From NCBI GenBank assembly GCA_019244185.1, contig JAFATB010000022.1, forward strand, positions 32,001 through 96,000: a stretch of 64,000 nt of DNA, given 5' to 3'. Below the pieces are notes generated by a model. It made no database searches and was not told the origin of the DNA. It saw only the letters and a list, made by a program, of their open reading frames with translations. Position numbers and translations under genes: made by a program. The stretch is from Acidobacteriota bacterium (GTDB lineage Bacteria; Acidobacteriota; Thermoanaerobaculia; Gp7-AA8). Of the stretch, positions 3,799 through 49,957 are shown in pieces (the first letter of the stretch is position 1; the number at the start of each line of letters is the position of its first letter).

Positions 3799-3801
3799 TC
3801 T

Positions 3802-7114: not shown

Positions 7115-7117
7115 GAG

Positions 7118-7168
7118 GATGCGTCCCGGCCGATGTGAGCGGCCTCGGCCGGGACGTGAGGACGCATC
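7118..7168. repeat. GC-rich intergenic inverted repeats
   Basis: CGTCCCGGCCGA (7122-7133) pairs with TCGGCCGGGACG (7145-7156). GATGCGTCC (7118-7126) can alternatively pair with GGACGCATC (7160-7168). No U tract. Confidence 0.5.
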
Positions 7169-7212
7169 GGCGTCCGGCTGCACGAATCCTGCAACGTTGC
7201 GCTCGGTCGCTC

Positions 7213-10941: not shown

Positions 10942-17058
<6,117 letters not shown>

Positions 17059-17196
17059 GGAATCCACCCCATCCTGAATTTGGTGTCGCGGAGCGCAGGA
17101 GCGTCCCGCGGGCAATGACTATTCGGTGAGACCGTTGATGCGGCGACTTTAACACGCGTCGCGGCGGCGGCACACGTGAATTCGGTGTGCAGACGC

Positions 17197-20940: not shown

Positions 20941-21070
20941 GAATCGTGTTCTAAACGTTGGCCGGGAAGAAAGCAATCGGAATCCTCTGACGCGGACGCA
21001 TCATTGCCGCAGTTCCTAATTTACATATTGCCATAACTACTTACTCGCTGCTATCCTGCCGCTCATCCCG

Positions 21071-27801: not shown

Positions 27802-27912
27802 CGGTAGCCGGACGGACCGGCCACGGTCCGACCTCGGTGGTGGTTGGTGGTGGCGGACTCCGTGGGTTGCAGGCCCCACGGATCCGCCACCCCATTTTCA
27901 GAAAGTCAACTT

Positions 27913-28461
27913 ATGGACCGAATCAGCAAAGCCGTCTATCGACTCTGGGGCTCCCTCGGCACGAACGACAAGTTGCACGACACGCCGCGCTTCGCCGACG
28001 AGCTCTCCGCTCAATGCAGCACCGGCAAGCTCGCGCTGCGCGACGAGCGCGTCAGCAAGTGGTCGTACGGCGAGCAGCTCGAACACCTCTACCGCAGCAG
28101 TCACTACGTCCTCGACCGGCTCGAGGAAGCGATGAGCGGCGCGAACGCGGACGAGCGCCGCGGCGTGTGGGGCCACGGCCTCATGACCGCCGGCTTCATC
28201 CCGCGCGGCTTCTTTCCGACCATCCCGCCGCTCGAGCCGGAAGGCGGCACGATCGATCAGATCGGACCGCTGCGCGAGTCTCTGAAGAAGCGGCTCGCCG
28301 AAGTCGACCTCGATCTGCGCCGCATCAAGGCCAGTCCCGGCCGCAGCCTCCATCCCCGGATGAAGTGGCTCACCTCGAGCGAATGGTTCTTCTTCGCCGA
28401 CGTCCACCACCGCCATCACCTCTCCATCATGCGCGACATCGCGCGCACCGCCCGCCGCTAG
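27913..28461 (+). CDS. DinB/YfiT family putative metalloenzyme
   Basis: KWSYGEQLEHL, HPRMKWLT and HHRHH match the DinB His-triad pattern. Confidence 0.75.
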   Translation: MDRISKAVYRLWGSLGTNDKLHDTPRFADELSAQCSTGKLALRDERVSKWSYGEQLEHLYRSSHYVLDRLEEAMSGANADERRGVWGHGLMTAGFIPRGFFPTIPPLEPEGGTIDQIGPLRESLKKRLAEVDLDLRRIKASPGRSLHPRMKWLTSSEWFFFADVHHRHHLSIMRDIARTARR

Positions 28462-28471
28462 AGCGACTCCC

Positions 28472-29113
28472 ATGATCCGAAAACTCCTCACCGCGCTCCT
28501 CGCGTCGTGCGCCATCTACGGATTGCCGGCGCTCGCTCATCCGGACATCTTCCGCACGCCGCAGTTCTGGATCCTGATCGCGTTCGCCGTCGGGATCTCC
28601 GCGTTCCAGCCGGCGTACAAGCCGGTCGACGCGTCGGCGCCGAAACACGACCGCGGCACCGCGGCGCAGATCGTCTGGTCGGTGTATCTCACGCAGCTCA
28701 TCGGGATCCTCGAGGCCGTGTTCGTGCGCTATCCCGACAGCTTCCGCTGGGACGCGGTGACGACGGCCGCGCTCGTCCTCATGGCCGCCGGACTGGCGCT
28801 GCGCGTCTGGGCCGTGCTCACGCTCGGCCGCTTCTTCACCTGGTTCATCACGGTGTACGAGGATCACCAGGTGATCCGCACCGGACCGTTCCGCTTCATC
28901 CGCCATCCGTCGTACGGCGGCGCGCTGCTGCTGTTCGTCGGCACGCTGCTCTTCATCCACGCGTGGGTCGGCGCCGCGCTGTCGCTCGCCTTTCAGCTCT
29001 TCGCATACGTCCGCCGCATCCGCTACGAAGAAGCGATGATGATCGAGCGCCTGGGCAAGCCTTACGTCGTGTACACGCGCGAAGTGCGCGCGCTCGTGCC
29101 GCTGCTCTGGTGA
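28472..29113 (+). CDS. isoprenylcysteine carboxyl methyltransferase (ICMT/PEMT) family membrane methyltransferase
   Basis: TLGRFFT...DHQVIRTGPFRFIRHPSYGG...RIRYEEAMM...Y..Y. Confidence 0.88.
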   Translation: MIRKLLTALLASCAIYGLPALAHPDIFRTPQFWILIAFAVGISAFQPAYKPVDASAPKHDRGTAAQIVWSVYLTQLIGILEAVFVRYPDSFRWDAVTTAALVLMAAGLALRVWAVLTLGRFFTWFITVYEDHQVIRTGPFRFIRHPSYGGALLLFVGTLLFIHAWVGAALSLAFQLFAYVRRIRYEEAMMIERLGKPYVVYTREVRALVPLLW

Positions 29114-31098
29114 CGCGGCCGGAGCTCCGCTTCGAGCTCGTCGTCGATTTCGTTCAGGAACTCGATGAGCTTCGCGGCGAAGAGCTCCGGCCGTTCCTCG
29201 TGTGACGAGACGCTCGCGAACGGAATGATCTCGAGCCGCCGCGCGCCCGGAATCGTGTCGAGCAACTTCCTGCCGTACGACGGCGAGTAGTACGCGTTGT
29301 CGGCGCCCCAGACGATCAGCGTCGGCACGTCGAGCTGCGCGAGCGACTGATTGAGCATCGCGACGTCGTTGTCTCGTAGCGTACGAAAGAAGCGCGTGAG
29401 GTGCCGGCGTCGCGCGGGCGTGCCGGCCACGGTGTCGCGATAGCGGCGGATGCGCTCCGGCGTGAGCAGCGAGCGGTCGTGCACGAGTCTTCCGAAGCCG
29501 AACGACGAGCGCGCGACGAGCGGCACGCGCATCAGCGATGCGAGCAGTGCCGCGCCGCCGGGGATGCGCATCAGTGACGCGAGGCGCGCCGCGTGCGGCG
29601 GCGGCCACGGGCCCTGCGCGTCGGAGTCGGAGAGCGTGAGGCTGCGCACGCAATGCGGCCAGCGCACGGCGAAGAACTCCGCGACGACGCAGCCGCTGTC
29701 GTTGCCCACGATGTGCGCGGACGCGATGCCGAGCGCGGATAACAGCCCGCGCACGCGCGCGGCCTGGGCCGACAGCGTGTAATCGGCGGATGGCGGAGCG
29801 TCGGTGTCGCTGATGCCGAGGGTCTCGATGATGAGAGCGCGGCGTTTCGTGGCCACCACGCGCTCGACGACGGCGTCCCACGCGTGCGCGCCTGCGAAGC
29901 CGTGCAGAAACACGACCGGCGTGCCGCTGCCGATGTCTCGGTACGCGACGTTGACGTCGCCGACCTGATGGAAGCGCTTCTCGGTGAACGCCGGATCGTC
30001 GCGCGTGACGGAGACCGCGTGGATCGCGGCGCGTTCGGAGCGCGGCTGTAACTCGTCGTCGATTGCGATGCTCGGCGCGACGCTGCGCGCATCGGCCGCG
30101 CGCACCGCGGTCTCGAGCCATTGCGCGGGATCGGGACGCGTGAGCGCGAACGGCGCGAGCGCGAGATCGGCGCGATAGGTGTCGAACACCGGCCCCTGAT
30201 GCAACAGTTCGAGACTGCGCGCGGGCAGCATCCACGCGGCGATGCGCGGCAGCAGCAGCGCGCCGCGTTTGCGTCCGCGGCCGCGCGCGGCGATCGCCGC
30301 CGCTTCCTTCACCGGCAGCGACGCGTGCCAGCCGCAGGCGAGATGAAATGTCCCGTCCGCGCCGGCGCAGGCGAGAGAGGCGATCGCGGCGCCCACGTAG
30401 TCGGCGGGAACGAAGTCGATGCGCGCGCGGCCGTCGCCGGGAAGCGCCTTCGACGACGCGAGCGCCGCGAGCAGCGGATACGCGCCGCCGAGGTGGAACG
30501 CGGCGCCGTTCTTCGCGCGGCCGAGCGTATGGCTCGGGCGGTAGATGGTCACGCGATCGCTGACGCGCGACTCGCGCAGCCGCACTTCCGCCTCGAACTT
30601 GCTGCGCTCGTACGCGTTGTGGAAGCGCTGGCCGCAGTCGAGATCGAACTCCGTCAGGAGTCCGCGCCGCGCGCCGCCGACGAAGCCGGTCGACAGATGA
30701 TGCAGGCGCAGCACGGGATTCCGTTCGAGGAGACGGATCCAGTTTTCGACCGGCAGCACGTTCGCCTGGCGCGCGAGCTCGAGGTTCTGATCGGTCGTCT
30801 CGCGTTGCGCGCAATGGATGCCGACGTCGAACGACGCCGCGAGCTCGTCCCACGCGCCGATCGAGAGGCCGAAGCGCGGCAGGCGCAGATCGCCCATGAC
30901 GATCGTGACGCGGCGCGCGAGCGGTCCGACGTACGCTTCGAGATGGCTGATGAGGCGCGTGCGCGCGGCTTCGTCGAACGGCAGCAGCAGGCGCAGCGAA
31001 TCCACGTCGGGATGCGACAGCAGCTCGCGCAGCACCTCCGCGCCGGCGAGCGTCGCCGCGCCGGTGAGCAGGATCCGCGACTTCGGGGTCGGTCTCAC
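29062..31098 (-). CDS. thioester-reductase-like SDR fused to alpha/beta hydrolase
   Basis: GTG at 31098 with AAGGAG SD. ILLTGAATLAG, GDLRLPRFGL, YERSK, IYRPS, DFVPADY; then VFLHGF, HIVGNDSG, IVWGADN, HEERP. Confidence 0.8.
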   Translation of the reverse strand: MRPTPKSRILLTGAATLAGAEVLRELLSHPDVDSLRLLLPFDEAARTRLISHLEAYVGPLARRVTIVMGDLRLPRFGLSIGAWDELAASFDVGIHCAQRETTDQNLELARQANVLPVENWIRLLERNPVLRLHHLSTGFVGGARRGLLTEFDLDCGQRFHNAYERSKFEAEVRLRESRVSDRVTIYRPSHTLGRAKNGAAFHLGGAYPLLAALASSKALPGDGRARIDFVPADYVGAAIASLACAGADGTFHLACGWHASLPVKEAAAIAARGRGRKRGALLLPRIAAWMLPARSLELLHQGPVFDTYRADLALAPFALTRPDPAQWLETAVRAADARSVAPSIAIDDELQPRSERAAIHAVSVTRDDPAFTEKRFHQVGDVNVAYRDIGSGTPVVFLHGFAGAHAWDAVVERVVATKRRALIIETLGISDTDAPPSADYTLSAQAARVRGLLSALGIASAHIVGNDSGCVVAEFFAVRWPHCVRSLTLSDSDAQGPWPPPHAARLASLMRIPGGAALLASLMRVPLVARSSFGFGRLVHDRSLLTPERIRRYRDTVAGTPARRRHLTRFFRTLRDNDVAMLNQSLAQLDVPTLIVWGADNAYYSPSYGRKLLDTIPGARRLEIIPFASVSSHEERPELFAAKLIEFLNEIDDELEAELRPRHQSSGTSARTSRVYTT

Positions 31099-32234
31099 AG
31101 GGACACTCCTTGTTCGACGCCGGCGAGCACGTGCGCGGCGGAGTAGCGCGACATCCACCAGCGCTGCAGCGGCAGCGTCGGCTTGAGCAGCGGGTCGTAC
31201 GCCTTGATGTAGAGGTACTGGTCTTCGAGCGTGCCGCCGAGGCGTGTCTTCGGCACGTACGAGCTCTGGCCGAGCCACAGCGTCTGGATGCCGCGCTCGA
31301 TCGCGCGCTGGATGCCGGTGTAGTTGAGCAGGTTGTAAATGAGGCCGCTGTCCGGCAGGTCGTAGTCGATGCCGATGCGTTTGTTCTGCTGCTCGCGCTC
31401 GTCGTAGAAGATCATCAGCGAGCCGGCGATGTGGCCGTCGTTGCGCTCGCAGACGACGAGCTCCGTGCGCGGGCTCCTCGTGCGCGCGCATTCGACGAAG
31501 AAGCGCGGGCCGAGCTCCTCGAACTGGTACTTCGCCTTGAGGAACACCGCGCGATGCAGCGGAAAGACGCGCGGGATCATCGACTCGAAGTCCTCGATCG
31601 CGCGCAGCGTGTACGTTCCCTCGGCCTTGTGGAACTGCTTGCGCGCGTGCTTGCGGCCGTTCTTCGAGAGCTGCTTGGTGAGGTAGTCCTCGAACGACGC
31701 GTACGCGGTGTTGATGCGGATCGTCGGCAGCGAGAAGCCTTCCGTGTAGCCGGCGCGGCGGAACACCGCGCGGTCTTCGGCGGGGAAGTCGCGGTGGATG
31801 TCCTTCAGCATCGCCAGCTGCGCGTGATGCTGTTTGGCCACGCCGTCGAGCGCGCGCAGCAGCAGCTGCAGCGCGGTGGCGTGGTCGGTGAGCTCGGGAT
31901 GCATCGGAATCCAGCCGCGGTCGGAGATGAGGCAGCCGGTGACGGCGACGCGCGTCGCGATCGCAGAGCCGACGCCGCTCACGAGCGCGTCGTAGCCGGT
32001 CTGGATCGCCTTCGGCAGCAGCGCGTTGAAATTCAGATTGCTGCCGACGTAGACCGGCGTGAACGCGACGACGGTGCCGTCGTCTTCGACGGTCAGATAA
32101 CGGACGTGCAGCTCGCCCCACAGCGAGCGTTCCATCGCCCGCAGCAGGCCGAACGAGAAATCGAGTCCGGTCGGCAGCGGCGCGAGCTGCGCGGCCCCGA
32201 TCTCGTCGATCGACTCATAGACGTGCGCGCGCAT
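31095..32234 (-). CDS. FemAB-like/BioF2-like tandem GNAT transferase
   Basis: SFEDYL..LSKNGRK, GIDY, IQRAIERG...LGQSSYVPKTRLG motifs. Confidence 0.8.
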   Translation of the reverse strand: MRAHVYESIDEIGAAQLAPLPTGLDFSFGLLRAMERSLWGELHVRYLTVEDDGTVVAFTPVYVGSNLNFNALLPKAIQTGYDALVSGVGSAIATRVAVTGCLISDRGWIPMHPELTDHATALQLLLRALDGVAKQHHAQLAMLKDIHRDFPAEDRAVFRRAGYTEGFSLPTIRINTAYASFEDYLTKQLSKNGRKHARKQFHKAEGTYTLRAIEDFESMIPRVFPLHRAVFLKAKYQFEELGPRFFVECARTRSPRTELVVCERNDGHIAGSLMIFYDEREQQNKRIGIDYDLPDSGLIYNLLNYTGIQRAIERGIQTLWLGQSSYVPKTRLGGTLEDQYLYIKAYDPLLKPTLPLQRWWMSRYSAAHVLAGVEQGVSL

Positions 32235-33225
32235 GGCTCACGACCTTTCGCTGAAAGGCATCGAACGTGTCGCGGGTGTCGGAGGCGAGATCGCCGGCGA
32301 GCGCGCGCACGCGTTGCCGCGCGTCGTCGCTCATGTCGTACGCAAACGGACCGAAGCCGCGCGCGGCCAGGAACGTCGCCGTCGCGCGGAACGTGCGCGG
32401 CAGCACCGCATCGACCCACGCCGCGTCGGACACGGCGATGGTCCACGTGTTGACCAATTGCTCGATGAACGATAGCGCGGCGTCGACGAGCGCGGGATTC
32501 TGCAGCGCGGGGAGCAGCGCGACGGCGATGAGCGTGCCGAGGTCGAAGGCGGGATCGCCGCAGCAAACGCCTTCGAAGTCGACCAGCGCGACCGGCGCGC
32601 CGCGGCGCACGAGGAGGTTCTTGCTCCAGAGGTCCGCGTGGATGAGGCACTCGCGATGCGCTTCCATCTCCGCGCGGATGCCGTCCCATTGCTCGGCGAA
32701 CACCTGCCGCGCGCCGGGCGCGAGCAGTCCGTCGAACACGATCCTGCGCACGATCGCTTCCTCCTGCGCGGGACGCGGCGACGCCTTGCCGCGCGTGCAC
32801 GCGTGCACCGCGCCGAGGCCGCGGCCGAGCGGTTGCGCGGCCTCGAGGAGCAAATCGAAGTCGTCGCGAATGACGTTGAAGAGCACCGCGCGTCCTTCGC
32901 CGACGTCCGTCATCGCCAGCGCGAACTCGTCGCGGTCGACGAACAGCACTTCCGGGATCAGCACCTCGCCTCCCGCGAACGCGCGGAACTGCCACAGTCC
33001 CGCGGCCTCGGAGAACACGCGCTCGCGCGGCAGCTTCACCGGCAGACGCTTCGGCTGCTCCGGAATGACTTTGAGGTACAGGCTGCGCCCGTAGACTTCG
33101 ACGCGATAGACGTAGTTGATGTTCGACAGCGCGCCGTCCTCGGTCACGGAGACCGGCGCGTCGTCGCGCAGCTTCAGACCACGGCGGACGATCGATGCGA
33201 CGTCGGCGACGACGGCGGTGGTCAT
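32215..33225 (-). CDS. APH/methylthioribose-kinase-like phosphotransferase
   Basis: ATG at 33225 overlaps the upstream TGA; NINYVYRV, LYLK, LIHADLWSKN, VDFE...GDPAFDLG. Confidence 0.85.
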   Translation of the reverse strand: MTTAVVADVASIVRRGLKLRDDAPVSVTEDGALSNINYVYRVEVYGRSLYLKVIPEQPKRLPVKLPRERVFSEAAGLWQFRAFAGGEVLIPEVLFVDRDEFALAMTDVGEGRAVLFNVIRDDFDLLLEAAQPLGRGLGAVHACTRGKASPRPAQEEAIVRRIVFDGLLAPGARQVFAEQWDGIRAEMEAHRECLIHADLWSKNLLVRRGAPVALVDFEGVCCGDPAFDLGTLIAVALLPALQNPALVDAALSFIEQLVNTWTIAVSDAAWVDAVLPRTFRATATFLAARGFGPFAYDMSDDARQRVRALAGDLASDTRDTFDAFQRKVVSHARARL

Positions 33226-34184
33226 GGGATGGCCTCCGGCAACCCCATGTACGTGAGGCGGCTGTTCTGCATCTCCGTCGACCACGTATGCGCGGCGATG
33301 AGGCGCTCTTCGGGCGTCGTGTCGATGAGCCGCTTGCCCGGCCAGATCTCGTAGTCGCCGACGACGTCCGCGTGCTGCTCGAGCCCCGCCTGGAAGAAGA
33401 GCTCGCGCTTGATGATCACGTCTTGCGTCGGCAGTGTCGCCCACAGCTGGCGCCCGCGCGTGATGATGTCGAGGACGTGCGGCTTCGCCTCGGGATGCTC
33501 GCGAAGATAGTCGCGCACCGTCGAGCTCCCGACCGTGAGGTGGCGGATCTCGTCGATGTTCGCGCCGCGCTCGATCTGCGCCGCGGGTGGATCGAGCAGC
33601 CGCCACTTGCGCTCCGACAATTCCGCCGCCGGCGCGAGCACGCCTTCGACGAGGATCGTGAGGATCACCACGCCGGCGATGAAGTCACGCTGATCGCGGA
33701 TCAGCGGCAGCGCGAAGGCTTCGAGCGGATGCAGGATCGCGCGCGCGTCGTCGCCGCTGATGCGCCAGATCGTGTCGAACAGCTCCTGCTCCGGCACGCC
33801 GAGCTCGAGGAGATGTCCGCGGAAGACGCGCGAATGCCGCGCCTCGTCGATGAGCTGCGTGCCGAAGAACTCCATCGTGTAGACGTCCGGCGCCGCGGCG
33901 ATGATGTACGTGATCGAGCGCGTCGCGATTTCCTCGGCGATGGACCGGAACGCGAACTCGTTCATGATCGCCTCGCGCAGCGGCCCGGCCTCGAGCATGT
34001 ACGCCGGCACGCGCGCGTTCGGCGCGTGGCCGTGCACCATGCCCGCGAGCGTGCCCTGCGGCACGGCCGTGAACCAGTAGTCGAGATCGCAGTCGCGCGG
34101 CGTGAGCTCGAGGCGGCTCGCGCCTTCGATGAGCGTCGGCGCCTCCGTCCAATCCGCCTCGCGCGGAATCGTGGTGGTCGTCAT
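33222..34184 (-). CDS. vlmB: VlmB-like non-heme diiron enzyme (putative azoxy synthase)
   Basis: Diiron ligands AEE...DEARH...VEG...DEIRH. LELTPRDCDLDYWFTAVPQGTL and EFAFRSIAEE match VlmB-like proteins as recalled; context supports. Confidence 0.8.
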   Translation of the reverse strand: MTTTTIPREADWTEAPTLIEGASRLELTPRDCDLDYWFTAVPQGTLAGMVHGHAPNARVPAYMLEAGPLREAIMNEFAFRSIAEEIATRSITYIIAAAPDVYTMEFFGTQLIDEARHSRVFRGHLLELGVPEQELFDTIWRISGDDARAILHPLEAFALPLIRDQRDFIAGVVILTILVEGVLAPAAELSERKWRLLDPPAAQIERGANIDEIRHLTVGSSTVRDYLREHPEAKPHVLDIITRGRQLWATLPTQDVIIKRELFFQAGLEQHADVVGDYEIWPGKRLIDTTPEERLIAAHTWSTEMQNSRLTYMGLPEAIP

Positions 34185-34197: not shown

Positions 34198-34662
34198 TTA
34201 CCAAGTGCCGGCGGCCTGGTAGTCGCGCTCGAAGCGGCGATAAGCCTCGTGCTTCACCGGCTCGAAGGCGGTGCCGAACGGCTTGTAGATGTTCCCGAAG
34301 ACGGAGCGGTCGCCGCAGAGATGGATCGGGAACGCGAGCATCGCCCACTCCAGCCGGCCGCCGATCGCGTACCAGATCGCGCAGAACAGCACCGTCGTGG
34401 CGAAGCTGTGGCCGAAGTTGTAGAGCTGGTGGATCACGGTCGGGATCGAGCGGTGCTCGCCCGAGCAGCGGAAGTAGTAGCAGTACAGACCGGGGAACGT
34501 GCCGAGGACGTCGGGCAGCGCGAACGCCCACGCGAAGTGCCACCAGTTCACCTCGCGCACGTGCAGCAGCAGCACGCCGAAGGCGGTGAACATGAGCACG
34601 GCCCAGTCGATGCGCTCGAGCGTGTAGATCGTCGGCGTGTGAAAGAGATTGTGTTTGTCCAT
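34198..34662 (-). CDS. vlmO: VlmO-like small integral membrane protein (putative hydrazine synthase)
   Basis: 154 aa with 4 hydrophobic segments; PD..G, LYNFGHS and PIHLCGDRSVFGNIYKPFGTAFEP; lies between vlmH-like and vlmB-like genes. Confidence 0.75.
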   Translation of the reverse strand: MDKHNLFHTPTIYTLERIDWAVLMFTAFGVLLLHVREVNWWHFAWAFALPDVLGTFPGLYCYYFRCSGEHRSIPTVIHQLYNFGHSFATTVLFCAIWYAIGGRLEWAMLAFPIHLCGDRSVFGNIYKPFGTAFEPVKHEAYRRFERDYQAAGTW

Positions 34663-34680: not shown

Positions 34681-35808
34681 TTACGCGACTTGCATCGGCT
34701 TGCCCATGAGGTAGCCGTCGATGGCGGAGGCGACGGAGAGGCGCGACGGCGGATGGAACGCGAGCGCGCGCGCGGCGGCGTAGAGATACGAGACGTCGGG
34801 TGTCTTGATGAAGGCCATGCCGCCGAGGAGCTCGGTGGCGCGGACGGTGACCCGCTCGATGGCCTGCTGCACGGCGAAGCGCACCAGCAGCGACTGCACG
34901 AGGATGCCCTCGCCGCGCTCGCCGGTCTGCATCGCGCGCGCGACGCCTTCGAGCGATGTCATCGCGCCTTCGAGATCGATGGCGAGCTGCATCCGCTCGG
35001 CGATGTCGCCGCGTCCGTGCGTGAAGACTTTTTCCGCGAGCGCGGACGCGACGCCGAGGTACGAGGCGGAGACGAGCAGCTCGAACCAGAGGAAGCCGCC
35101 CGCTTCGACCGCGTCGAGACTCTCCTCGACCTCGGGGAAGAAGAGCTGTTCGTCGGCGATCTGCACGTCGGTGAGGCAGAGCTCCTCGCTCTCCGCGCCG
35201 CGAAGCACGGTGCTGCTCCAGAACGGCTTGCGGGTGATGCCTTCCGCGTCCGCGGGCACGACCGCCACCGCGCGGCGGCTGCCGTTGCCGTTGTTGCTCG
35301 GCACCGAGACGCTCGCGGTGAGGATGTGCATCGAGTTCGACAGGCTGCACGGCTTCTTGCTGCCGTTGATGCGATAGCCGCCGCCGTCCTGCGGCGTGGC
35401 CTTCATCAGCGGATCGAGGATGCTCGTGCCGGTGCGGCCTTCCGCGAACCCCGAGGCGACCAGGAGCTGCCCGCCCGCGATCTGCTGGAGCAGCTCCACC
35501 GTGTAGTCGCCGTAGAAGAGGTACTCGACCAGCGTCGCCACCGAGAAGTTGTGCATCGTCATCGCGATGGCGAGCGACGGCGAGCGCGTGGCCACGGCGC
35601 GGTGGATCTGGATGGCCTCCGCGGGCGTGGCGCCTTTGCCTCCGTGCTCGGCCGGCACGAGCAGCCCCGCGCCCTCGAGCTCGCGGAGGATGGTGAGGCC
35701 GGGATTGCCCGGCTTCTCGATCTCCATGAGCGGGATTTCCTGCAGTTTCGCGTCGAGTGTGGGGAGGAACTTTTCGAGCGTCTCCCGATCCCTTTTCAGG
35801 AAGTTCAT
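34681..35808 (-). CDS. vlmH: VlmH-like flavin-dependent alkylamine N-hydroxylase (acyl-CoA dehydrogenase fold)
   Basis: GLLVPAEHGGKGA...RSPSLAIAMTMHNFS, ASGFAEG, GSKKPCSLS, LLGGMAF, LAFHPPSR resemble isobutylamine N-hydroxylase as recalled. Start at 35808 follows GAGGGG. Confidence 0.82.
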   Translation of the reverse strand: MNFLKRDRETLEKFLPTLDAKLQEIPLMEIEKPGNPGLTILRELEGAGLLVPAEHGGKGATPAEAIQIHRAVATRSPSLAIAMTMHNFSVATLVEYLFYGDYTVELLQQIAGGQLLVASGFAEGRTGTSILDPLMKATPQDGGGYRINGSKKPCSLSNSMHILTASVSVPSNNGNGSRRAVAVVPADAEGITRKPFWSSTVLRGAESEELCLTDVQIADEQLFFPEVEESLDAVEAGGFLWFELLVSASYLGVASALAEKVFTHGRGDIAERMQLAIDLEGAMTSLEGVARAMQTGERGEGILVQSLLVRFAVQQAIERVTVRATELLGGMAFIKTPDVSYLYAAARALAFHPPSRLSVASAIDGYLMGKPMQVA

Positions 35809-35893
35809 GACGTACCCCTCGCTGAATTGTTTTTTGCGCGACCGGTTCATTTATAGAGCTGATCCATAAAAAAGTAAAGATCGAAAAATAGCA

Positions 35894-35922
35894 TTGACAA
35901 GTTCCATAAGGACGCCTATAAA
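35894..35922 (+). promoter_or_regulatory. sigma70-type promoter in the AT-rich divergent control region of the cluster
   Basis: TTGACA (35894-35899), 17 nt, TATAAA (35917-35922); A-tracts upstream (UP-element-like). Confidence 0.6.
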
Positions 35923-35976
35923 TGCAGACTCGCAATCCGGTCAGCTGCAGACTTCAGGAGAACCCACGGACTCACT

Positions 35977-38900
35977 ATGGCGACGCCTTCGCTGGTTCAT
36001 CTGCTTCAGGAGCGCGCGGACGAGCTTCCCGGCCACCGCTCGTACACCTTTCTCGCCGGCGGTGAAGAATCGGAGAGCCTGACGTTCGCGCGGCTGAACC
36101 GGCGCGCGCGCGCCATCGCCGCGCGGCTGCAGCGCCTCGGCGCGAAAGGGGAGCGCGCGCTGCTGCTCTATCCGGCCGGCACCGAATACATCGCCGCGTT
36201 TTACGGCTGCCTGGCCGCGGGAACCGTCGCGGTGCCCGGCTATCCGCCGCGCATGAACCGCAACCTCAACCGCCTCGAGTCCATCATCAAGGATGCGGAG
36301 GCGCGCTTCGCGCTGACTACCGACGCCGTCTACCGCCAGCTCAGCGAGCGCTTCGACGAGTCACCGAGCCTCAAACGCCTGCAGTGGGTCGTCACCGATC
36401 CGATCGCGGAAGATGAGGCGGACGGCTGGACCGATCCGAACGCGACGCGCGAGACGCTCGCGTTTCTCCAGTACACGTCCGCATCGACCTCCGCGCCGAA
36501 GGGCGTCATGGTCACGCACGGCAACATCCTCCACAACCAGGTCCTGATGAAGGAGGCGGTGCAGCACGACCGCAACACGATCGCCGTCTCCTGGCTGCCG
36601 CTGTTCCACGACATGGGACTGATCAGCATCGTCCTCTCGTCGCTGTACAACGGCATCCCGTGCTATCTCGTCGCGCCGGTCGATTTCCTGAAGAAACCGC
36701 GGCTGTGGCTCGAGGCGATCAGCAAGTACGGCGCGACGTTCAGCGGTGCGCCCGACTTCGGCTACCAGCTCTGCGTCGAGCGCATCAGCGCCGAGGAGCG
36801 CGCGAAGCTCGACCTGTCGAAGTGGCGGGTCGCGTTCAACGGCTCGGAGCCGATCCGCTCGGACACGCTGCGCCTCTTCACCGAGACGTTCGCCGAATGC
36901 GGCTTTCGTCCGACCTCGATGTTCCCGTGCTACGGCCTCGCGGAGAACACGCTCTTCGCGAGCGGCCGCTTTCACGACGGTCCGACGTCGTTCTCGCGCG
37001 CGAGTCTCGAGCGTCATCGTCCCGCGCCGGCGACGGAAGGTCATTTGGCGCAGCTCGTCAGTTGCGGCAAGGCGCTGCTCGACTCCCGCATCGTCATCGC
37101 CGATCCGAAGACGCGCCGACGCTGCGGCGAAGGTGAAGTCGGCGAGATCTGGCTGGCCAGTCCGAGCGTCGCGCAGGGCTACTGGAATCAGCCGCGGCTG
37201 AGCGAGGAAACGTTCCGCGCGCAGACGCTCGACGGCGACGGTCCGTTCCTCCGCACCGCGGACCTCGGCTTCTTCCACGCCGGTGAGCTCTTCATCACCG
37301 GCCGCATCAAGGACCTCATCATCATCCGCGGACGCAACCTCTGCCCGCAGGACATCGAACAGACGGTCGAAGCGTGCGACGCGGCGATCCAGCCGACGTT
37401 CGTGGCCGCGGTCGCGGTCGACGCGGGCACCAGCGAGCGGCTGGTCATCGTCGCGGAAATCCGGCGCGAGGCGCGACGCGAGCTCGATACCGAGGAGATC
37501 GTGCGGAAGATCCGGAACGCGGTAGCGGCGGAGTTCGCGGTGGAAGTGTCCGCGGTCGTGCTGCTGCGTCCGGGACAACTGCCGAAAACGTCGAGCGGCA
37601 AGACGCAGCGCGCGCACGTGAAGCAGCAGTTCCTCGACGGCCAGCTGAAGACGGCCATGATCGCGGAGTGGCGTGACGAGAACGCGTTCCGCGCGAACGA
37701 TCCCGAGCCGCCGCGCGCGCCGAAACACGCGCCGACGCAGGAGCGCATCGAGAGCTGGCTCGTGCAGCGCATCGCCGCGCAGACGAAGATCCCCGCGACG
37801 CGCATCGACCGCACCGCCTCGCTCCTCGTCTACGGACTCGACTCGGTCGTGCTCGTGGCGATCTTCGGCGAGCTCGAAGACGCGTTCCGCGTCACGCTCG
37901 ATCTCGACCGCATCTTCCACGGCGAGCCGTCGCTGCGCGAAGTCGCGCAACGCGTGCACGCCGCGACGCGCGCGACGGCGGCGACGGCAGATGTTCCCGC
38001 GCCTGCGCCTGTTGCCGCGCCCGCGCGTCCGCAGCCGGTGCCCACCGAAGCGCCGCCCGCGCAACCGGCATCCGTGCTGCCGATCGCGAAGCCGAAGAAG
38101 CTCACGCTCGGCAACACCGACGCGACGGCCGCGTCTCCGACGCCGAAGCCGGTGCTCGCCGCGGTGCCCGACACCAGACACGAAGAACGCGCGCCGAAGC
38201 CGAAGCATCCCTTCCGCACGCACGTCAATCCCGAGCTCGGGCGCGTGCTCGAGCAGATGGCCATGGACAAGTCGTTCGTGCGCGGCGAGGGGAGCTGGCT
38301 TTGGGATGAAGCGGGGCGCCGCTACCTCGATTTCCTCGCGCAGTACGGCGCGCTACCGTTCGGCTTCAATCCGCCGCGTATCTGGTCGGCGCTGAACGCC
38401 GTGCGCGCGACCGCGGAGCCGAGCTTCGTGCAGCCGTCGTATCTCAACGCCGCGGGCGAGCTCGCGAAACGACTGCTCGCCGTCGCGCCTCCGGGCATGG
38501 CGTACGTGACGTACGCGAACAGCGGCGCGGAAGCGATCGAGGCGGCGATCAAGCTCTGTCGCTCGACGACGAAGCGCCACGACATCCTCGCCGCGGGCAA
38601 CGGCTTCCACGGCAAGACGCTCGGCGCGCTCTCCGCGACGGACAAGGAGAAATACCAGAAAGGCTTCGGCGCGCCGGTACCCGGCTTCCACTACGTCCCG
38701 TACGGCGACGCGGACGCGCTGCGGCGCGCGCTCGCCGGCGGCCGCTACGCCGCGTTCCTCGTCGAGCCGATCCAGGGCGAGGGCGGCATCGTTGAGCCGC
38801 CGGCGGGTTACCTCCGGCTCGCGCGCAAGCTGTGCCGCGAGGCGGGCACGCTCTTCGTCGCCGACGAGATCCAGACGGGACTCGGCCGCACTGGCGCGAT

Positions 38901-40839
38901 GTTCGTCTGCCGCGAGCTCGGCATCACGCCCGACGTGATGACCGTCGCGAAAGCGCTCGGCGGCGGTCTCGTTCCGATCGGCGCGTGCCTCGCCACCGCG
39001 GCCGCGTACAACGAAGACTTCGCGCTGAAGCACACGTCGACGTTCGCGGGGAACACGCTCGCATGCCGCGCCGGCATCGCGACGCTCGATCTGTTGGAAG
39101 CCGACAGCGGCGCGCTCGTCGCGCAGGTGAAAGCGAACGGCGCACGATTGAAGGACGCGCTGCTCGCGCTCGCCGATCGCTATCCCGGTCTCATCGCGGA
39201 AGTCCGCGGACGTGGCTACTTCCTCGGCCTGCGCCTCGGGCTCGACCGTCATTCCGTCGACGACGGTCTCCTCGGCTACCTCGGCGAACAGGAAGCGCTG
39301 ACCGCGATCGTCGTCAGCCATCTGCTGCACGTCGAAGGCGTGCGCGTCGGCTTCACGCTCAATCACGGCGGCGTGCTGCGCATCGAGCCGCCGCTCACGG
39401 CGACGTGGGAGGAGTGCCAGTTCTTCCTCGCCGCGCTCGAGCGCGTGCTCGTGCGCATCGACCGCCGCAACCTCGCCGCGCTGACCTCGCAGGTGACGGG
39501 CTTCCGTCCTGCCGTCGCGGCGGAAGTCGTGAGACCCCGCGTGACGGAGCTCCCGCGAAAAGCGCGGCTCGACGTGCGCGCCGGCGATGGACGCTTCGCG
39601 TTCCTCGTCCATCCGCTGGCGTGGAAGGACTACGGCGACATCGACGAGAGCCTCGCGCCGCTCTCCGGCGAACAGCTGGCGAAACTCTCCGGCGCGCTGG
39701 CCGACAACTTCGATCCGATGGTCGTCGGCGAGACGCGTATCACCGCCGAGAACGGCAAGACCGCGTACGGCGAGTTCATTCTCGTGCCGCGCCGCGCCGA
39801 GGAGCTGCGCGCGCTGCCGCCCGAACAGGCGGTGAGCGAGATCCGCGAAGCCGTGCGCGTGGCGCAGAAGCGCGGCGCGAAGATCGTCGGCCTCGGCGCG
39901 TACACCTCCGTCGTCACGCAGGGCGGCCTCTCACTGGTCGGTGAAGGCCTGCCCGCGATCACCACTGGAAACTCCTACACCGTCATTGCCGCGCGGCAAA
40001 CGATCCGTCTCGCGTCGGCTGATCGAGGCTGGCAGCTCCCGCGACGAACCGTCGCGGTCCTGGGCGCCGGCGGCTCGATCGGGCAGGCGCTGTCCGTCCT
40101 CCTTGCGCGCGACACCGGCCGTTTGCTGCTGATCGGGAACCCCGCACATCCCGACGAAAGCCGTGAGCGTCTGCTGCAGGTCGCGGGACGGATCGTTTGC
40201 TCGCTCGATCAATTGAAAGGATTCGCGCCCGGTTCGGTCGCCAGCTGGGTTGCAGAGCTGGCGATCGAGGCGCCGCAGAAGCCGGATCGCGCGACGTTGA
40301 TTCGCCTGGGCGAGGAGTTCATCGCGCGCACGGGCGCCGTGGAGCTCGGCGTCGACGCCGCGCAGTTCCTGCCGCGCGCGGACGTCGTGGTCTGCTGCAC
40401 GAGCACGACCGAGCGCATGGTCACCGAAGAAACGCTGCGGCGCGAAGCGATCGTGTGCGACGTCTCGCGGCCGTCGAACGTCGGCGCGCACGTGCGCGCG
40501 CGGCGCCCGGACGTCCTCGTGCTCGACGGCGGCGTGGTGCGGTTGCCCGGCAGCTCGCAACTCGGCTTCAACGCCGGCATCGGCAAAACGAACGCGTACG
40601 CCTGCATGGCGGAAACGATGATGCTCGCGCTCGAACAGCGCTATCGCGACGCGAGCCTCGGATTCGATCTTTCGCTCGACAACGTGCTGGAGATGGAACG
40701 GCTCGCGGAAGCAACGGGCTTCCGCGTGGTCTCACGGAAACAGGCCCCCGAAGCATTGACAGTGATGCGACTCCTTAGTCGGGAGGAGAACGAGGCGCAA
40801 GTCCTCGAGGGGGCTCCACCGCTTTCCGCGACGTCGTGA
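35977..40839 (+). CDS. four-domain FAAL-ACP-class III aminotransferase-acyl-ACP-reductase-like protein (putative fatty amine synthase)
   Basis: FAAL: FLQYTSASTSAPKG, SWLPLFHDMGLI, PCYGLAE, LPKTSSGK. ACP: YGLDSV. Aminotransferase: EPIQGEGG, DEIQTGLGRTG, AKALGGG. Reductase: FAFLVHP, GLGAYTS, TTGNSYT, GAGGSIG, YACMAETM. Confidence 0.88.
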   Translation: MATPSLVHLLQERADELPGHRSYTFLAGGEESESLTFARLNRRARAIAARLQRLGAKGERALLLYPAGTEYIAAFYGCLAAGTVAVPGYPPRMNRNLNRLESIIKDAEARFALTTDAVYRQLSERFDESPSLKRLQWVVTDPIAEDEADGWTDPNATRETLAFLQYTSASTSAPKGVMVTHGNILHNQVLMKEAVQHDRNTIAVSWLPLFHDMGLISIVLSSLYNGIPCYLVAPVDFLKKPRLWLEAISKYGATFSGAPDFGYQLCVERISAEERAKLDLSKWRVAFNGSEPIRSDTLRLFTETFAECGFRPTSMFPCYGLAENTLFASGRFHDGPTSFSRASLERHRPAPATEGHLAQLVSCGKALLDSRIVIADPKTRRRCGEGEVGEIWLASPSVAQGYWNQPRLSEETFRAQTLDGDGPFLRTADLGFFHAGELFITGRIKDLIIIRGRNLCPQDIEQTVEACDAAIQPTFVAAVAVDAGTSERLVIVAEIRREARRELDTEEIVRKIRNAVAAEFAVEVSAVVLLRPGQLPKTSSGKTQRAHVKQQFLDGQLKTAMIAEWRDENAFRANDPEPPRAPKHAPTQERIESWLVQRIAAQTKIPATRIDRTASLLVYGLDSVVLVAIFGELEDAFRVTLDLDRIFHGEPSLREVAQRVHAATRATAATADVPAPAPVAAPARPQPVPTEAPPAQPASVLPIAKPKKLTLGNTDATAASPTPKPVLAAVPDTRHEERAPKPKHPFRTHVNPELGRVLEQMAMDKSFVRGEGSWLWDEAGRRYLDFLAQYGALPFGFNPPRIWSALNAVRATAEPSFVQPSYLNAAGELAKRLLAVAPPGMAYVTYANSGAEAIEAAIKLCRSTTKRHDILAAGNGFHGKTLGALSATDKEKYQKGFGAPVPGFHYVPYGDADALRRALAGGRYAAFLVEPIQGEGGIVEPPAGYLRLARKLCREAGTLFVADEIQTGLGRTGAMFVCRELGITPDVMTVAKALGGGLVPIGACLATAAAYNEDFALKHTSTFAGNTLACRAGIATLDLLEADSGALVAQVKANGARLKDALLALADRYPGLIAEVRGRGYFLGLRLGLDRHSVDDGLLGYLGEQEALTAIVVSHLLHVEGVRVGFTLNHGGVLRIEPPLTATWEECQFFLAALERVLVRIDRRNLAALTSQVTGFRPAVAAEVVRPRVTELPRKARLDVRAGDGRFAFLVHPLAWKDYGDIDESLAPLSGEQLAKLSGALADNFDPMVVGETRITAENGKTAYGEFILVPRRAEELRALPPEQAVSEIREAVRVAQKRGAKIVGLGAYTSVVTQGGLSLVGEGLPAITTGNSYTVIAARQTIRLASADRGWQLPRRTVAVLGAGGSIGQALSVLLARDTGRLLLIGNPAHPDESRERLLQVAGRIVCSLDQLKGFAPGSVASWVAELAIEAPQKPDRATLIRLGEEFIARTGAVELGVDAAQFLPRADVVVCCTSTTERMVTEETLRREAIVCDVSRPSNVGAHVRARRPDVLVLDGGVVRLPGSSQLGFNAGIGKTNAYACMAETMMLALEQRYRDASLGFDLSLDNVLEMERLAEATGFRVVSRKQAPEALTVMRLLSREENEAQVLEGAPPLSATS

Positions 40840-42452
40840 GCGCGCTCGGCGAGCTCGCCGCATGGGCGCACGGGCTGCGTCTCGACGACGTGCCGCCGTT
40901 CGTGCGCGCGCGTGCCGTCGACCAACTGCTCTCGACGCTCGGCGCGATGTACGCCGGCGCCGCGAGCGAGCTCGGTCCGAAGCTCGACCTCTTGTTCGCG
41001 GACGTTGCGCCGGAGACGACGCGCGAGGCCATGCGCATGGCCTCGTGGTCGATGGTGCTCGACTACGACGACGTCATGCTCGGCGGTCACACGAGCCATT
41101 CAGCGGTCGTCGTGCCGCTCGCGTTCGCGGACGGGCATTCCGGCGCGGAGCTGCTGCTCGCGCAGATCGTTGCGAACGAGATCGCCGCGCGCGTGAACAT
41201 GGTCTGCGCCGTCGGCTCGACGCGCGGGCAGATGGCGACGCACCTTCATCTCCTCGCCGCCGCCGCCGCGCGTGCGAAGCTCGAAGGTCTCGATGCCGCG
41301 ACGTTCGCGGATGCGCTGTCGTTCGCGCTCGCGTATCCCGCGCAGGCGCTCTATCCCGCGTTTCTCGGCAGCGACGCGAAGGCGCTCTGCGCCGCGCTGC
41401 CAGTCCGCGCCGGCATCGAAGCGGTCGACGCGGTGCGCGCGGGACTGCGCGCGCCGGGTGAGGTACTCGACGGCCCGCGCGGCTTCTTCGCGACGCATGC
41501 GCGCGTGCCGGTGCGCGATTTTCTCGGCGGACTCGGCACGCGCTGGCACACCGCGACGAACAGCTTCAAGATCTACCCCGTCTGCGGCTATCTCTGCTCC
41601 GCGGTCGACGCGACGCTCGACCTCGTGCGCACGTATGACGTCGACGCGGACGACGTCGCGTCCGTCGACGTGCACGCGTCGCTCTTCACGGTCGGCATGG
41701 ACGCGCATTCCGTTCCCTACATTGACGGCCCGCGCTCACCGATCGCGGCGCTCACGTTCTCGACGCCGTTCGTGATCGCGTCTGCGATCCGCGCGCGTGC
41801 ATTCACGCCGGCGCAGCTCGAACGCGCGTGGATCGAAGACGAGCGCGTGTGGCAGCTCGCCGCGCGCGTACAAACGCGCCACGATCCGCGCCTCACGCGC
41901 GACGCGCTCACCGCGGACATCCCGATCGGCGCCGCGCTACGCCGCGTGAAGAAGTGGCAGGCCGGGGGATTCGCGTGGAGCATTGCCGCGACGGCATTCG
42001 GCCGCGCGGGGCGTCTGCGCCGTCCGGTCGAAACGCTGCGTCTCATCGCGGGACTCACCGCTGCGGCAGGCGATCGCGCGCCGATGGAGTTCGAGCGCGC
42101 GACGAAGCCGATGGGCGCGCGCGTCGCGATGCGTCTGCGCGACGGCCGCACGCTCGAACGCGAGGTGTCGATCCCGCGCGGCTTCGCGGGCGGCATTGAT
42201 GACATCCGCACGCTGATGATTCACAAGTTCCTCGCCGCCGCCGCGCCGGAGCTCGGCAGCGCGCGGGCCGCCACCGCCGCCGTCGCGCTCGAACACTACG
42301 AGTCGCTCTCGCCCGACGGCGTCGCGCGCCTCGTCGACGTGCTCGCGCGCGAGACGCCGCCGTTCACCCGCGCATCAGCCGCGGCGGCAGCATCCACTCC
42401 AGCGATGCGTGGCGGCCGCTCCAGCGAAGGCCGTAGCAGCCGCCTTTCTTGA
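40836..42452 (+). CDS. MmgE/PrpD family protein (putative VlmK-like lyase)
   Basis: GTGA overlap; LDYDD...GHTS, FKIYPVCGYLCSAVDA, FSTPFVIA, REVSIPRG...KF. Confidence 0.85.
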   Translation: MSALGELAAWAHGLRLDDVPPFVRARAVDQLLSTLGAMYAGAASELGPKLDLLFADVAPETTREAMRMASWSMVLDYDDVMLGGHTSHSAVVVPLAFADGHSGAELLLAQIVANEIAARVNMVCAVGSTRGQMATHLHLLAAAAARAKLEGLDAATFADALSFALAYPAQALYPAFLGSDAKALCAALPVRAGIEAVDAVRAGLRAPGEVLDGPRGFFATHARVPVRDFLGGLGTRWHTATNSFKIYPVCGYLCSAVDATLDLVRTYDVDADDVASVDVHASLFTVGMDAHSVPYIDGPRSPIAALTFSTPFVIASAIRARAFTPAQLERAWIEDERVWQLAARVQTRHDPRLTRDALTADIPIGAALRRVKKWQAGGFAWSIAATAFGRAGRLRRPVETLRLIAGLTAAAGDRAPMEFERATKPMGARVAMRLRDGRTLEREVSIPRGFAGGIDDIRTLMIHKFLAAAAPELGSARAATAAVALEHYESLSPDGVARLVDVLARETPPFTRASAAAAASTPAMRGGRSSEGRSSRLS

Positions 42453-42840
42453 GATCGACGTCGCCGCTCATGCCCGTGAGCGAAAGCATGAACGCGGAGA
42501 GCGTCGGCTCGTGGCCGACAAAGTACGCGGCCGGTTCCTTGACGTCGTGCAGGAACTCACGGAACGCATCGGGATCGCTGCCCGGCACGAGCGCATCCGT
42601 GATGTAAAACGCGAGCTTGCCGCCGTATGCCTCCGCCACCCACGCCCCCGTCTCCCGCGCGCGCACCAGCGGGCTGCTGTAGATCGCCTCGGCCTCGGGG
42701 ACGAGGCGCGCGAGCGTCTTCGCGATCTCCTGCATCTTGGCGTTGCCTTCCGCCGTGAGACGGCGTTCGGCATCGGCCTTGTGGCCTTTGTCTTCGGCGA
42801 TGCCGTGGCGGAGGAGGATGAGCAGTCCGTCGCGTTTCAT
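42364..42840 (-). CDS. sixA: SixA-like histidine phosphatase
   Basis: ATG at 42840 overlaps the patatin stop; LLRHGIAE, RRLTAEG, SSPLVRARET, VGHEP, LKKGG. Confidence 0.85.
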   Translation of the reverse strand: MKRDGLLILLRHGIAEDKGHKADAERRLTAEGNAKMQEIAKTLARLVPEAEAIYSSPLVRARETGAWVAEAYGGKLAFYITDALVPGSDPDAFREFLHDVKEPAAYFVGHEPTLSAFMLSLTGMSGDVDLKKGGCYGLRWSGRHASLEWMLPPRLMRG

Positions 42841-46595: not shown

Positions 46596-46652
46596 GAATT
46601 GTCCCCCTTGCTCGTTAGGAGTGCCGTGGCGGAGGGTTTCCCTACCGCCGGG

Positions 46653-49202: not shown

Positions 49203-49957
49203 TCTCTCATCTGCCACGGCGCGACGCGCTGTAGCAGCCATTGAATGGTGGCGTTGATGGTGATCCCGATCAGCGAGCAGACGATCACGCCGACGTACAG
49301 ATTCTCGATCCGCATCGTCTGCCACGCCAGCCAGATGATCGACCCGATCCCGCGCGTTGTCACGGTGAATTCGATGGCGATGGTCACCAGCAAGCCGATA
49401 TTCGCGGCGATGCGCACGCCGCTCAGGATCATCGGCAGGCTGCCCGGCAGCAGCACGTGGCGGAACAGCGCCATGCGACTGCCGCCGTAGCTGCGCACCA
49501 CTTCGAAGTAGAGCGGCGAGATGTCGCGCGCGCCCGCGGCGGCGTTGATCAGCGTCGGGAAGAAGACCGTCAGCGCGATCGCGGCGAGCGTCGACCATTC
49601 CGAAACGCCGAAGATCACGATGAAAAGCGGGAAGAGAACGATCTTCGGAATCGGATGCAGCGCGGCCAGGAACGGATCGGCGATGCGGCGCATGCGCGGC
49701 GACCAGCCGACGATGAGGCCGAAGACGATGCCGGGGATGCCTCCGAGCATCGCGCCGCCGAGAAAGCGCATCAGCGTGAGCGAGACATTCTCGAGCAGAT
49801 CCTCGCGCCACAGGCGCGGGAACCCGGCCAGGATGCGCGTCGGCGGCGGGAAGATGGTCGACGAGATCCACTCGTTGCGCGCGGCCAGCTCCCACGCCGC
49901 GAACAGCACGACGGCGATGGCGGCGGCGATGGCGCGGTCTTTCGCGGTCGGCTTCAT
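49199..49957 (-). CDS. NitT/TauT ABC transporter permease
   Basis: ATG at 49957 overlaps the ATPase stop; HPIPKIVLFPLF, EVVRSYGGS...VLLPGSLP. Confidence 0.9.
   Translation of the reverse strand: MKPTAKDRAIAAAIAVVLFAAWELAARNEWISSTIFPPPTRILAGFPRLWREDLLENVSLTLMRFLGGAMLGGIPGIVFGLIVGWSPRMRRIADPFLAALHPIPKIVLFPLFIVIFGVSEWSTLAAIALTVFFPTLINAAAGARDISPLYFEVVRSYGGSRMALFRHVLLPGSLPMILSGVRIAANIGLLVTIAIEFTVTTRGIGSIIWLAWQTMRIENLYVGVIVCSLIGITINATIQWLLQRVAPWQMRE

Follow-up and report, generated by a model that had tools for sequence, protein, structure and literature searches.

A candidate single-chain fatty amine synthase in a conserved valanimycin-like gene cluster of an acidobacterium

Where would a pathway of the valanimycin type find its amine if no decarboxylase were at hand? 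The question is raised by a locus of an Acidobacteriota bacterium (GCA_019244185.1), studied here in a stretch of 64,000 nucleotides (positions 32,001 to 96,000 of contig JAFATB010000022.1), which we call the window and in whose own numbering all positions are given. Next to a minus-strand group of genes resembling those of valanimycin biosynthesis (vlm), it carries a plus-strand gene that an earlier note, made from the letters alone, had taken for a fusion of the tambjamine proteins TamA and TamH, converting a fatty acid into a fatty amine in one polypeptide. Domain profiles confirm the predicted four-domain architecture of this open reading frame (ORF, 35977-40839), and the comparisons below support its reading as a natural fusion of the TamA-TamH type, common in soil metagenomes but uncharacterised, which lies within a conserved vlm-like cluster and is not mechanistically surprising. 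The identities of its domains, the conservation of their motifs, the fold of the reductase domain and the synteny of the locus are established here. We consider it likely, from homology and gene context, that the protein is a self-contained fatty amine synthase, working in cis, which feeds a valanimycin-type azoxy pathway.

Domains of the fusion protein

The ORF has a GC content at third codon positions (GC3) of 0.87, fitting a coding sequence in a window of about 68% GC throughout. Its protein reads, from the N-terminus, as a fatty acyl-AMP ligase (FAAL), an acyl carrier protein (ACP) domain, a class III transaminase and a thioester reductase resembling acyl-ACP reductase (AAR); all Pfam domains given here exceed their gathering scores (Table 1). 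E-values as small as these across four domains, together with 62 other full-length relatives among the best 120 database matches, rule out that the arrangement is a product of chance. In an alignment of 30 four-domain relatives, T167, S168, K542 (the A10 lysine), S623, K992, G1363, A1364, G1366, G1369 and C1543 are invariant. The four domains and the key motifs named by the earlier note (GLDS, AKALGGG, TTGNSYT, GAGGSIG and YACMAE) are thus all present and conserved among relatives, and the Pro/Ala linker that it saw after the ACP is there too, preceding the transaminase.

At the N-terminus, the Pfam family AMP-binding covers residues 11-403 (E 8.9e-66; 222.7 bits against a cut-off of 29.9) and AMP-dom_DIP2-like residues 446-559. 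Among adenylating enzymes, the FAAL models of NCBIfam rank highest for this region (PRK05850, E 1.7e-130, below its curated cut-off), and the best sequence match in the PDB is 7r7g (E 1.5e-156), with further matches to 3kxw, FadD32, FadD23, the FAAL 3pbk and FadD28. The stretch of some 37 residues between YGLAEN (319-324) and VSCG (about 361), which can be aligned to 7r7g with few small gaps, may be the FAAL-specific insertion expected after the YGLAE motif. The P-loop does read TSASTS where TSGSTG is usual, as the earlier note had remarked, but its supposed oddity did not stand: among 63 four-domain proteins YTSAST occurs in 51 and YTSGST in nine, the pattern being unmatched in three, so the variant is a signature and norm of the clade, not a defect. 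The carrier domain, with its phosphopantetheine serine, follows directly after the FAAL, as in a TamA-type didomain.

The transaminase finds its best PDB matches in putrescine aminotransferase (4uox, E 3.6e-78) and PigE (4ppm, E 4.5e-77), the same pair that PMC9594044 gives for TamH. The PigE model of NCBIfam matches the fusion in three stretches, and its transaminase part is matched by this domain.

Within the last 400 or so residues Pfam returned nothing above threshold, Shikimate_DH being sub-threshold only. When the C-terminal 443 residues were scanned alone, they matched the PigE model (positions 50-191 and beyond) and the acyl-ACP reductase model TIGR04058 (E 1.3e-22, below cut-off), and among PDB sequences residues 2-336 of PigE (4ppm, E 3.2e-23) and AAR (6jzq, E 1.6e-16). 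The cysteine of YACMAE lies opposite that of FACFAE in AAR and NGCMAE in PigE, in agreement with the claim that cyanobacterial AAR uses the equivalent residue. AlphaFold modelled residues 1190-1600 from an alignment of 39 sequences with a pLDDT of 90 and a pTM of 0.89. In a Foldseek search this model matched AAR best (6jzu_A, E 4.8e-24, TM 0.82 on the target, with 21-23% identity in the AAR structural alignment), then the carmabin "terminal amidation domain" (TAD; 9e4s, E 1.7e-17, TM 0.63-0.64), and thereafter unrelated Rossmann dehydrogenases with TM below 0.4. The domain parse, the model and the alignments to PigE and AAR, which the earlier note had proposed as checks, therefore bear it out: the C-terminal domain does align to AAR.

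The C-terminal domain scores 80.5 bits against the equivalog cut-off of 449.7 for TIGR04058; it shares a homologous fold with AAR but is no AAR orthologue. Against the PigE equivalog NF053554 the fusion scores 516.5 of 850 bits, and its two domains stand in the opposite order to those of 4ppm. Their layout is that of TamH, in which, according to PMC9594044, a class III transaminase with its pyridoxal phosphate (PLP) lysine precedes an AAR-like domain with GxGxxG and a cysteine. The pattern [YF]ACMAE is found in 61 of the 63 four-domain proteins; a strict Rossmann pattern is matched by 44, yet the four residues of that motif listed above never vary in the 30-sequence alignment.

Relatives and neighbours of the gene

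Of 7995 candidates scored in a database search with residues 1180-1620, 263 proteins reached E <= 1e-3, and the best 120 were parsed by blastp with the four domain segments. Sixty-three, the query included, have the full FAAL-ACP-transaminase-reductase order; 51 are transaminase-reductases of TamH-like length, three have a carrier domain before the transaminase and three an adenylation domain after the reductase. Precomputed Pfam annotation places a carrier domain, missed by blastp, in three more transaminase-reductases (P0100, P0105 and P0120). The other four-domain proteins span 1526-1813 residues and come from independent assemblies; their database names are generic ("aminotransferase class III-fold..."), and the named organisms are Terriglobia, Pyrinomonadaceae and metagenome-assembled genomes (MAGs) of Acidobacteriota. 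The fusion is thus neither rare nor unique in sequence databases.

In whole genomes it is sporadic. In one of 24 other genomes of the genus (G016) a match extends across the four domains, at 76% and 60% identity in two segments and in an open frame of 1593 residues free of internal stops; this tally counts the unpublished G002 and G024 as non-matches, while the unpublished G030 is a genome of the same class only. Among 400 other genomes sampled from the phylum, three FAAL-only matches and no four-domain match were seen at E <= 1e-170; as this search began with a stricter first look, its result sets a floor and does not amount to absence. A scan of genome collections with the 30-protein alignment gave, among the matches listed, mostly FAAL-only or transaminase-reductase loci, the four-domain ones being L001, L006 and, in part, L010. 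In L027 the FAAL-ACP and the transaminase-reductase are separate genes 5 kb apart. The ESM Atlas yielded only proteins of another architecture, in which FAAL-ACP is joined to a class I/II aminotransferase.

In a quick maximum-likelihood tree built from 39 reductase domains, the 13 four-domain sequences that are azoxy-linked group as a single clade (SH-aLRT 96); L001 is its sister (98), and L006 lies apart. In L001, an Entotheonellaceae MAG, the four-domain gene (4293-9086, 47% identity) directly follows a polyketide synthase (PKS) module of DH-ER-KR-ACP composition (3-4265, plus strand); in L006, an Anaerolineae MAG, it adjoins HAD, DHDPS and transaminase genes. The arrangement in L001 raises the separate possibility that this type of fusion also converts the ends of polyketide chains into amines.

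Two further groups deserve mention in their own right. Proteins of about 1400 residues (P0076, P0111 and P0112; loci L151-L153, L156 and L158) have an adenylation domain behind the transaminase-reductase, and no carrier domain was detected in them. Cultured Rhodococcus strains (L011, L012, L014, L015 and L017) have TamH-type transaminase-reductase genes, around which no FAAL homologue lies within 10 kb; the reductase domains they encode make up the tree's most divergent branch.

For the clade of the window, 25 loci (24 metagenome contigs and G016) were compared by tblastn with the window proteins. Wherever the flank on the relevant side extends to 4.5 kb or more, which is so in 12 loci, the genes for the ACAD-like (acyl-CoA dehydrogenase-like), VlmO-like, VlmB-like, kinase and FemAB-like proteins are present together. 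Over the whole set, 19 of 25 loci show the ACAD-like gene and 16 the VlmB-like gene; loci without these matches have at most 481 bp of flank upstream of the fusion (its N-terminal side), where the ACAD-like gene of the window lies. Among those misses, L100 extends 2.4 kb beyond the PrpD-like gene, and no ACAD-like match was found there. The PrpD-like gene adjoins the fusion in 18 of 25 loci and is missing in a subclade of about 50% identity (L107, L115, L116 and L176), where the ACAD-like gene directly follows the fusion. A reductase-hydrolase of the NAD_binding_4 family occurs in 9 of 25, a count limited by contig ends, and DinB-family and ICMT-family genes were found in the loci with the longest flanks.

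Family matches of these neighbours vary in strength. The ACAD-fold protein scores 33.3 bits with Acyl-CoA_dh_M, exactly at the cut-off. The VlmB homologue (P0122) matches the PDB entries 6d9f/8wvr ("Putative VlmB homolog") with E 3.2e-106 over residues 27-342. In the small VlmO-like protein, counted from the ATG at 34662, we read by eye the residues D51, H85, H114 and D118, to be compared with D51/H82/H110/D114, which are essential in VlmO (PMC11705231); its faint DUF4260 match is shared by the VlmO homologue Ady6, as given in PMC9379638. VlmA has been described as FemABX-like (PMC12945691); a PDB search with the FemAB-like protein gave no significant match, and its likeness to VlmA, like that of the ACAD-fold protein to VlmH, holds at family level only. 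The divergent intergenic region probably holds a promoter, judging from the elements read in it.

Two minus-strand genes adjoin the cluster on its other side: 42840-46652 encodes a 1271-residue protein with a short patatin match only, and 46656-50111 an NRPS-like (nonribosomal peptide synthetase-like) protein whose A-T-TE domains come after an unassigned N-terminal stretch of about 300 residues. Since none of the 25 loci carries either, both fall outside the conserved set. Elsewhere in the window, 10945-17118 (2058 residues) and 18850-21000 (717 residues), both on the minus strand, encode very large DUF11-repeat proteins, the longer one also with Calx-beta and endonuclease/exonuclease/phosphatase domains; the plus-strand ORFs lying over them (11198-13729 and 19256-20341; GC3 0.93-0.98, no family matches) look like antisense shadows. 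At 5467-10830 the plus strand encodes a 1788-residue hybrid sensor kinase that combines numerous PAS domains with HisKA, HATPase_c and a receiver domain, just downstream of a BlaI/BlaR1-type repressor and M56 peptidase pair (3793-5453). OmpA and TonB genes also occur in the window and, with its high GC, had suggested a myxobacterial origin as one candidate.

Table 1. Coordinates of the fusion gene, its domains and motifs, and the neighbouring genes in the window
Feature	Position	Strand	Basis
Fusion gene, FAAL-ACP-transaminase-thioester reductase	35977..40839	+	ATG 35977, TGA 40839, 1620 aa, uninterrupted frame
FAAL domain, residues 1-580	35977..37716	+	Pfam AMP-binding and AMP-dom_DIP2-like
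P-loop TSASTS, residues 167-172	36475-36492	+	Read in translation
A10 motif SSGKTQR	37591-37611	+	K542 invariant in 30 relatives
Carrier (ACP) domain, residues 594-660	37756..37956	+	Pfam PP-binding, E 1.4e-10
Phosphopantetheine Ser623 in GLDS, residues 620-623	37834-37845	+	Ser invariant in 30/30 relatives
Pro/Ala-rich linker, about residues 665-745	37969..38211	+	Residues 661-750 are 44% Pro+Ala; consensus unconserved in 30-relative alignment
Class III (omega) transaminase domain	38209..39486	+	Pfam Aminotran_3, residues 767-1158, E 1.9e-85
PLP Lys992 in AKALGGG, residues 991-997	38947-38967	+	Motif in 63/63 four-domain relatives
AAR-like thioester reductase domain	39586..40764	+	PDB matches to PigE and AAR; AlphaFold/Foldseek
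TTGNSYT, residues 1329-1335	39961-39981	+	Reductase motif
GAGGSIG, residues 1363-1369	40063-40083	+	Reductase Rossmann motif
Catalytic-type Cys1543 in YACMAE, residues 1541-1546	40597-40614	+	Aligned with AAR and PigE Cys
MmgE/PrpD-family gene, VlmK-like	40836..42452	+	Pfam MmgE_PrpD_N/C; GTG start overlaps fusion TGA (GTGA)
AT-rich divergent intergenic region, 126 bp	35851..35976	.	TTGACA-17 nt-TATAAA, AGGAG before ATG, read by eye
ACAD-fold flavin monooxygenase, VlmH-like candidate amine N-hydroxylase	34681..35850	-	Pfam Acyl-CoA_dh_M; DszC-type NCBIfam and PDB matches
Small membrane protein, 154 aa, VlmO-like candidate hydrazine-forming enzyme	34198..34662	-	Weak DUF4260 (E 0.11); syntenic
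VlmB homologue, 320 aa, non-haem di-iron azoxy-forming oxygenase family	33222..34184	-	PDB 6d9f/8wvr
APH-type kinase, start codon uncertain	32215..33354	-	Pfam APH, E 8.6e-15; weak LxmK match; syntenic
FemAB-like GNAT transferase, VlmA-like candidate aminoacyl-tRNA transferase	31095..32234	-	Pfam FemAB_like, E 4.8e-10, 39.6 bits (cut-off 27); syntenic
NAD_binding_4 thioester reductase fused to alpha/beta hydrolase, start uncertain	29062..31146	-	Pfam, NCBIfam
DinB-family gene, then ICMT-family membrane methyltransferase	27844..29113	+	Pfam DinB_2, ICMT/PEMT

Proposed route and its alternatives

The most direct guide to what the fusion might do is the tambjamine system, compared here as the cited sources describe it. 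In Pseudoalteromonas tunicata, TamA and TamH supply the tail of tambjamine YP1 with the same four activities in the same order, in two polypeptides where the window has one chain joined by the linker, and in the context of a bipyrrole alkaloid where the window has vlm-like azoxy genes (PMC9594044). TamA adenylates the fatty acid and loads its own ACP; TamH combines a class III transaminase with an AAR-like reductase bearing GxxGxxG and a putative catalytic Cys887, carries out NADH-dependent reductive offloading and then amination of the aldehyde, and uses acyl-ACP but not acyl-CoA (PMC9594044; preprint 10.1101/2025.08.11.669332). The earlier note's statement that two proteins make fatty amines in this pathway is thus accurate, the pair having been shown to produce amines from fatty acids (PMC9594044), and its reading of the gene as TamA followed by TamH is supported, bioinformatically, by the domain parse and order.

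Other systems share parts of the scheme. PigE of the prodigiosin MAP pathway (4ppm) consists of the same two domain families, its residues 2-336 resembling the reductase and 398-742 the transaminase of the window, but has the reductase first and lacks adenylation and carrier domains; thioester reduction followed by transamination is reported for it (PMC8341465). Cyanobacterial AAR (6jzq/6jzu) has the same fold, the TTGN and GxGxxG motifs and the aligned catalytic cysteine, and transfers the acyl group to Cys294 before hydride transfer (PMC9594044; preprint 10.1101/2024.10.28.620694); it stands alone, passes its aldehyde to ADO for alkane synthesis, and the window domain is about 60-70 residues longer. 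In Streptomyces albus, TabQ, TabJ, TabE and TabA lead from acyl-ACP through an aldehyde to the fatty amine of tambjamine BE-18591, much like the route proposed here, but as four discrete proteins, of which the reductase TabE is aldehyde dehydrogenase-like and unrelated to AAR (preprint 10.1101/2025.08.11.669332).

By this analogy, the N-terminal FAAL would adenylate a free fatty acid and load it, within one polypeptide, onto the phosphopantetheine of Ser623 in the carrier domain. The acyl group would then pass to Cys1543 of the AAR-like domain, where NAD(P)H-dependent reduction of the thioester would give a fatty aldehyde, and the transaminase, with PLP on Lys992, would turn this into a primary fatty amine, glutamate or alanine being the probable donor.

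What would become of the amine is suggested by the neighbours. In the azoxy cascade, as set out in PMC11705231 and PMC9379638, VlmH/R N-hydroxylates an amine, VlmA esterifies the product in an aminoacyl-tRNA-dependent reaction, VlmO forms the hydrazine and VlmB the azoxy group, and VlmJ phosphorylation and VlmK dehydration follow. At the level of protein families, the conserved neighbours match every one of these steps. The ACAD-fold monooxygenase would N-hydroxylate the amine; the FemAB-like enzyme would esterify it to an aminoacyl group; the VlmO-like protein would rearrange the ester to a hydrazine, which the VlmB homologue would oxidise to the azoxy group; and the kinase and PrpD-like pair would dehydrate the serine-derived side chain, like VlmJ and VlmK. 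Homology and synteny, from which we infer both amine formation and the azoxy product, make it most likely that the cluster serves a soil bacterium to produce a long-chain natural product with an azoxy group (N=N-O). That this product carries a methyl ester, like that from Ady1 in the azodyrecins, is only a guess.

In supplying an alkylamine to a VlmH-type enzyme, the fusion would play the role of VlmD in valanimycin and of Ady2 with Ady4, or AzdP with AzdQ, in the azodyrecins (PMC9379638; preprint 10.1101/2023.10.13.562208). VlmD is a valine decarboxylase, unlike the fusion, and the azodyrecin clusters have separate, only predicted genes for a dehydrogenase or fatty acyl reductase and a transaminase, with no FAAL-ACP fusion described in these sources. 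The earlier note's suggestion that the fusion replaces VlmD gains from its context: vlm-like genes travel with it, and no decarboxylase family was matched among the 37 window ORFs scanned by family profiles. The nocuolin A (noc) cluster of cyanobacteria, which makes an N-N-O metabolite, is comparable by description, not by sequence, with a predicted FAAL with ACP, acyl-ACP reductase, aminotransferase, N-monooxygenase and methyltransferase, all separate genes of predicted function (PMC5333925).

Several observations weigh against this reading. Because the NCBIfam scores all fall below curated cut-offs (436 of 775 bits for the FAAL model PRK05850, besides those given above for PigE and AAR), the function of the fusion at family level is inferred, not assigned. 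The P-loop, for all its conservation in the clade, deviates from TSGSTG. The NAD_binding_4 reductase-hydrolase found no role in the known azoxy pathway, and neither a flavin reductase (VlmR) nor a dedicated aminoacyl-tRNA synthetase (VlmL) family was matched in the 37 scanned ORFs. Finally, since the distant relatives L001 and L006 sit in non-azoxy contexts, the fusion is not tied to azoxy chemistry in general.

This last point is also what favours an unlikely alternative, that the amine is made for a non-azoxy product (for example an amino lipid, an N-acyl amine or a tambjamine-like alkaloid tail) and the vlm-like neighbours form a separate pathway. TamA and TamH themselves serve a pyrrole alkaloid (PMC9594044), but within the clade of the window the fusion lies beside the five minus-strand vlm-like genes in every locus with enough flank, shares its divergent intergenic region with them, and is accompanied by no pyrrole/MBC-type or other acceptor-pathway family match in the 37 scanned ORFs. 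An equally improbable reading has the protein halt at the aldehyde or alcohol, the transaminase either having only a structural role or using a different pathway substrate, for instance a keto or aldehyde intermediate derived from an amino acid. AAR alone does release aldehyde (PMC9594044; TAD preprint 10.1101/2024.10.28.620694), and with a second reductase in the cluster the redox steps are not fully assigned; yet the PLP-lysine motif AKALGGG is kept in all 63 four-domain proteins, the nearest solved transaminases use terminal aldehyde/amine pairs, and the TamH and PigE pairings are reported to reduce and then transaminate the same chain (PMC9594044; PMC8341465).

That the C-terminal domain acts as a TAD, releasing a fatty amide in place of an aldehyde, is very unlikely. 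The carmabin TAD is the second-best fold match and has the same TTG motif and cysteine, but in sequence PigE and AAR are far closer (TAD, E 0.011), the chemistry of the TAD is itself unproven (preprint 10.1101/2024.10.28.620694), and after amidation the fused transaminase would have nothing to act on. Least credible of all is an assembly or annotation artefact joining TamA-like and TamH-like genes: split forms such as L027 and the many transaminase-reductases standing alone do exist, but the frame is unbroken here and in G016, and the four-domain length recurs in 62 other proteins from independent assemblies.

Possible long-chain azoxy chemistry in soil bacteria

Returning to the fusion as amine source of an azoxy pathway, we note that the known producers of aliphatic azoxy compounds are all actinomycetes. 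Literature searches found no description of the four-domain fusion and no azoxy cluster outside actinomycetes; most subscription papers, and the supplementary figures on TamH homologues, lay outside their coverage, so prior mention of either is possible. The wider proposal that this is the first aliphatic azoxy pathway outside actinomycetes, in which a self-sufficient synthase and its conserved partners mark clusters for long-chain, valanimycin-like azoxy lipids with a new amine supply in Gram-negative soil bacteria, the closest relatives with a name being Acidobacteriota MAGs, seems to us evenly poised between right and wrong.

Fatty amines are bulk chemicals for which enzymatic routes from fatty acids are sought, and the TamA/TamH pair has been published as a fatty acid-to-amine cascade (PMC9594044). 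A natural single chain with four predicted activities and its carrier in cis is a candidate biocatalyst, and a model for a carrier domain visiting three active sites. Its context would widen the reach of the VlmH/A/O/B azoxy cascade, itself conserved, to substrates with long chains in uncultured or little-studied soil bacteria, and the gene set at about 27.8-42.5 kb of the window offers a precise, testable lead to new N-N natural products.

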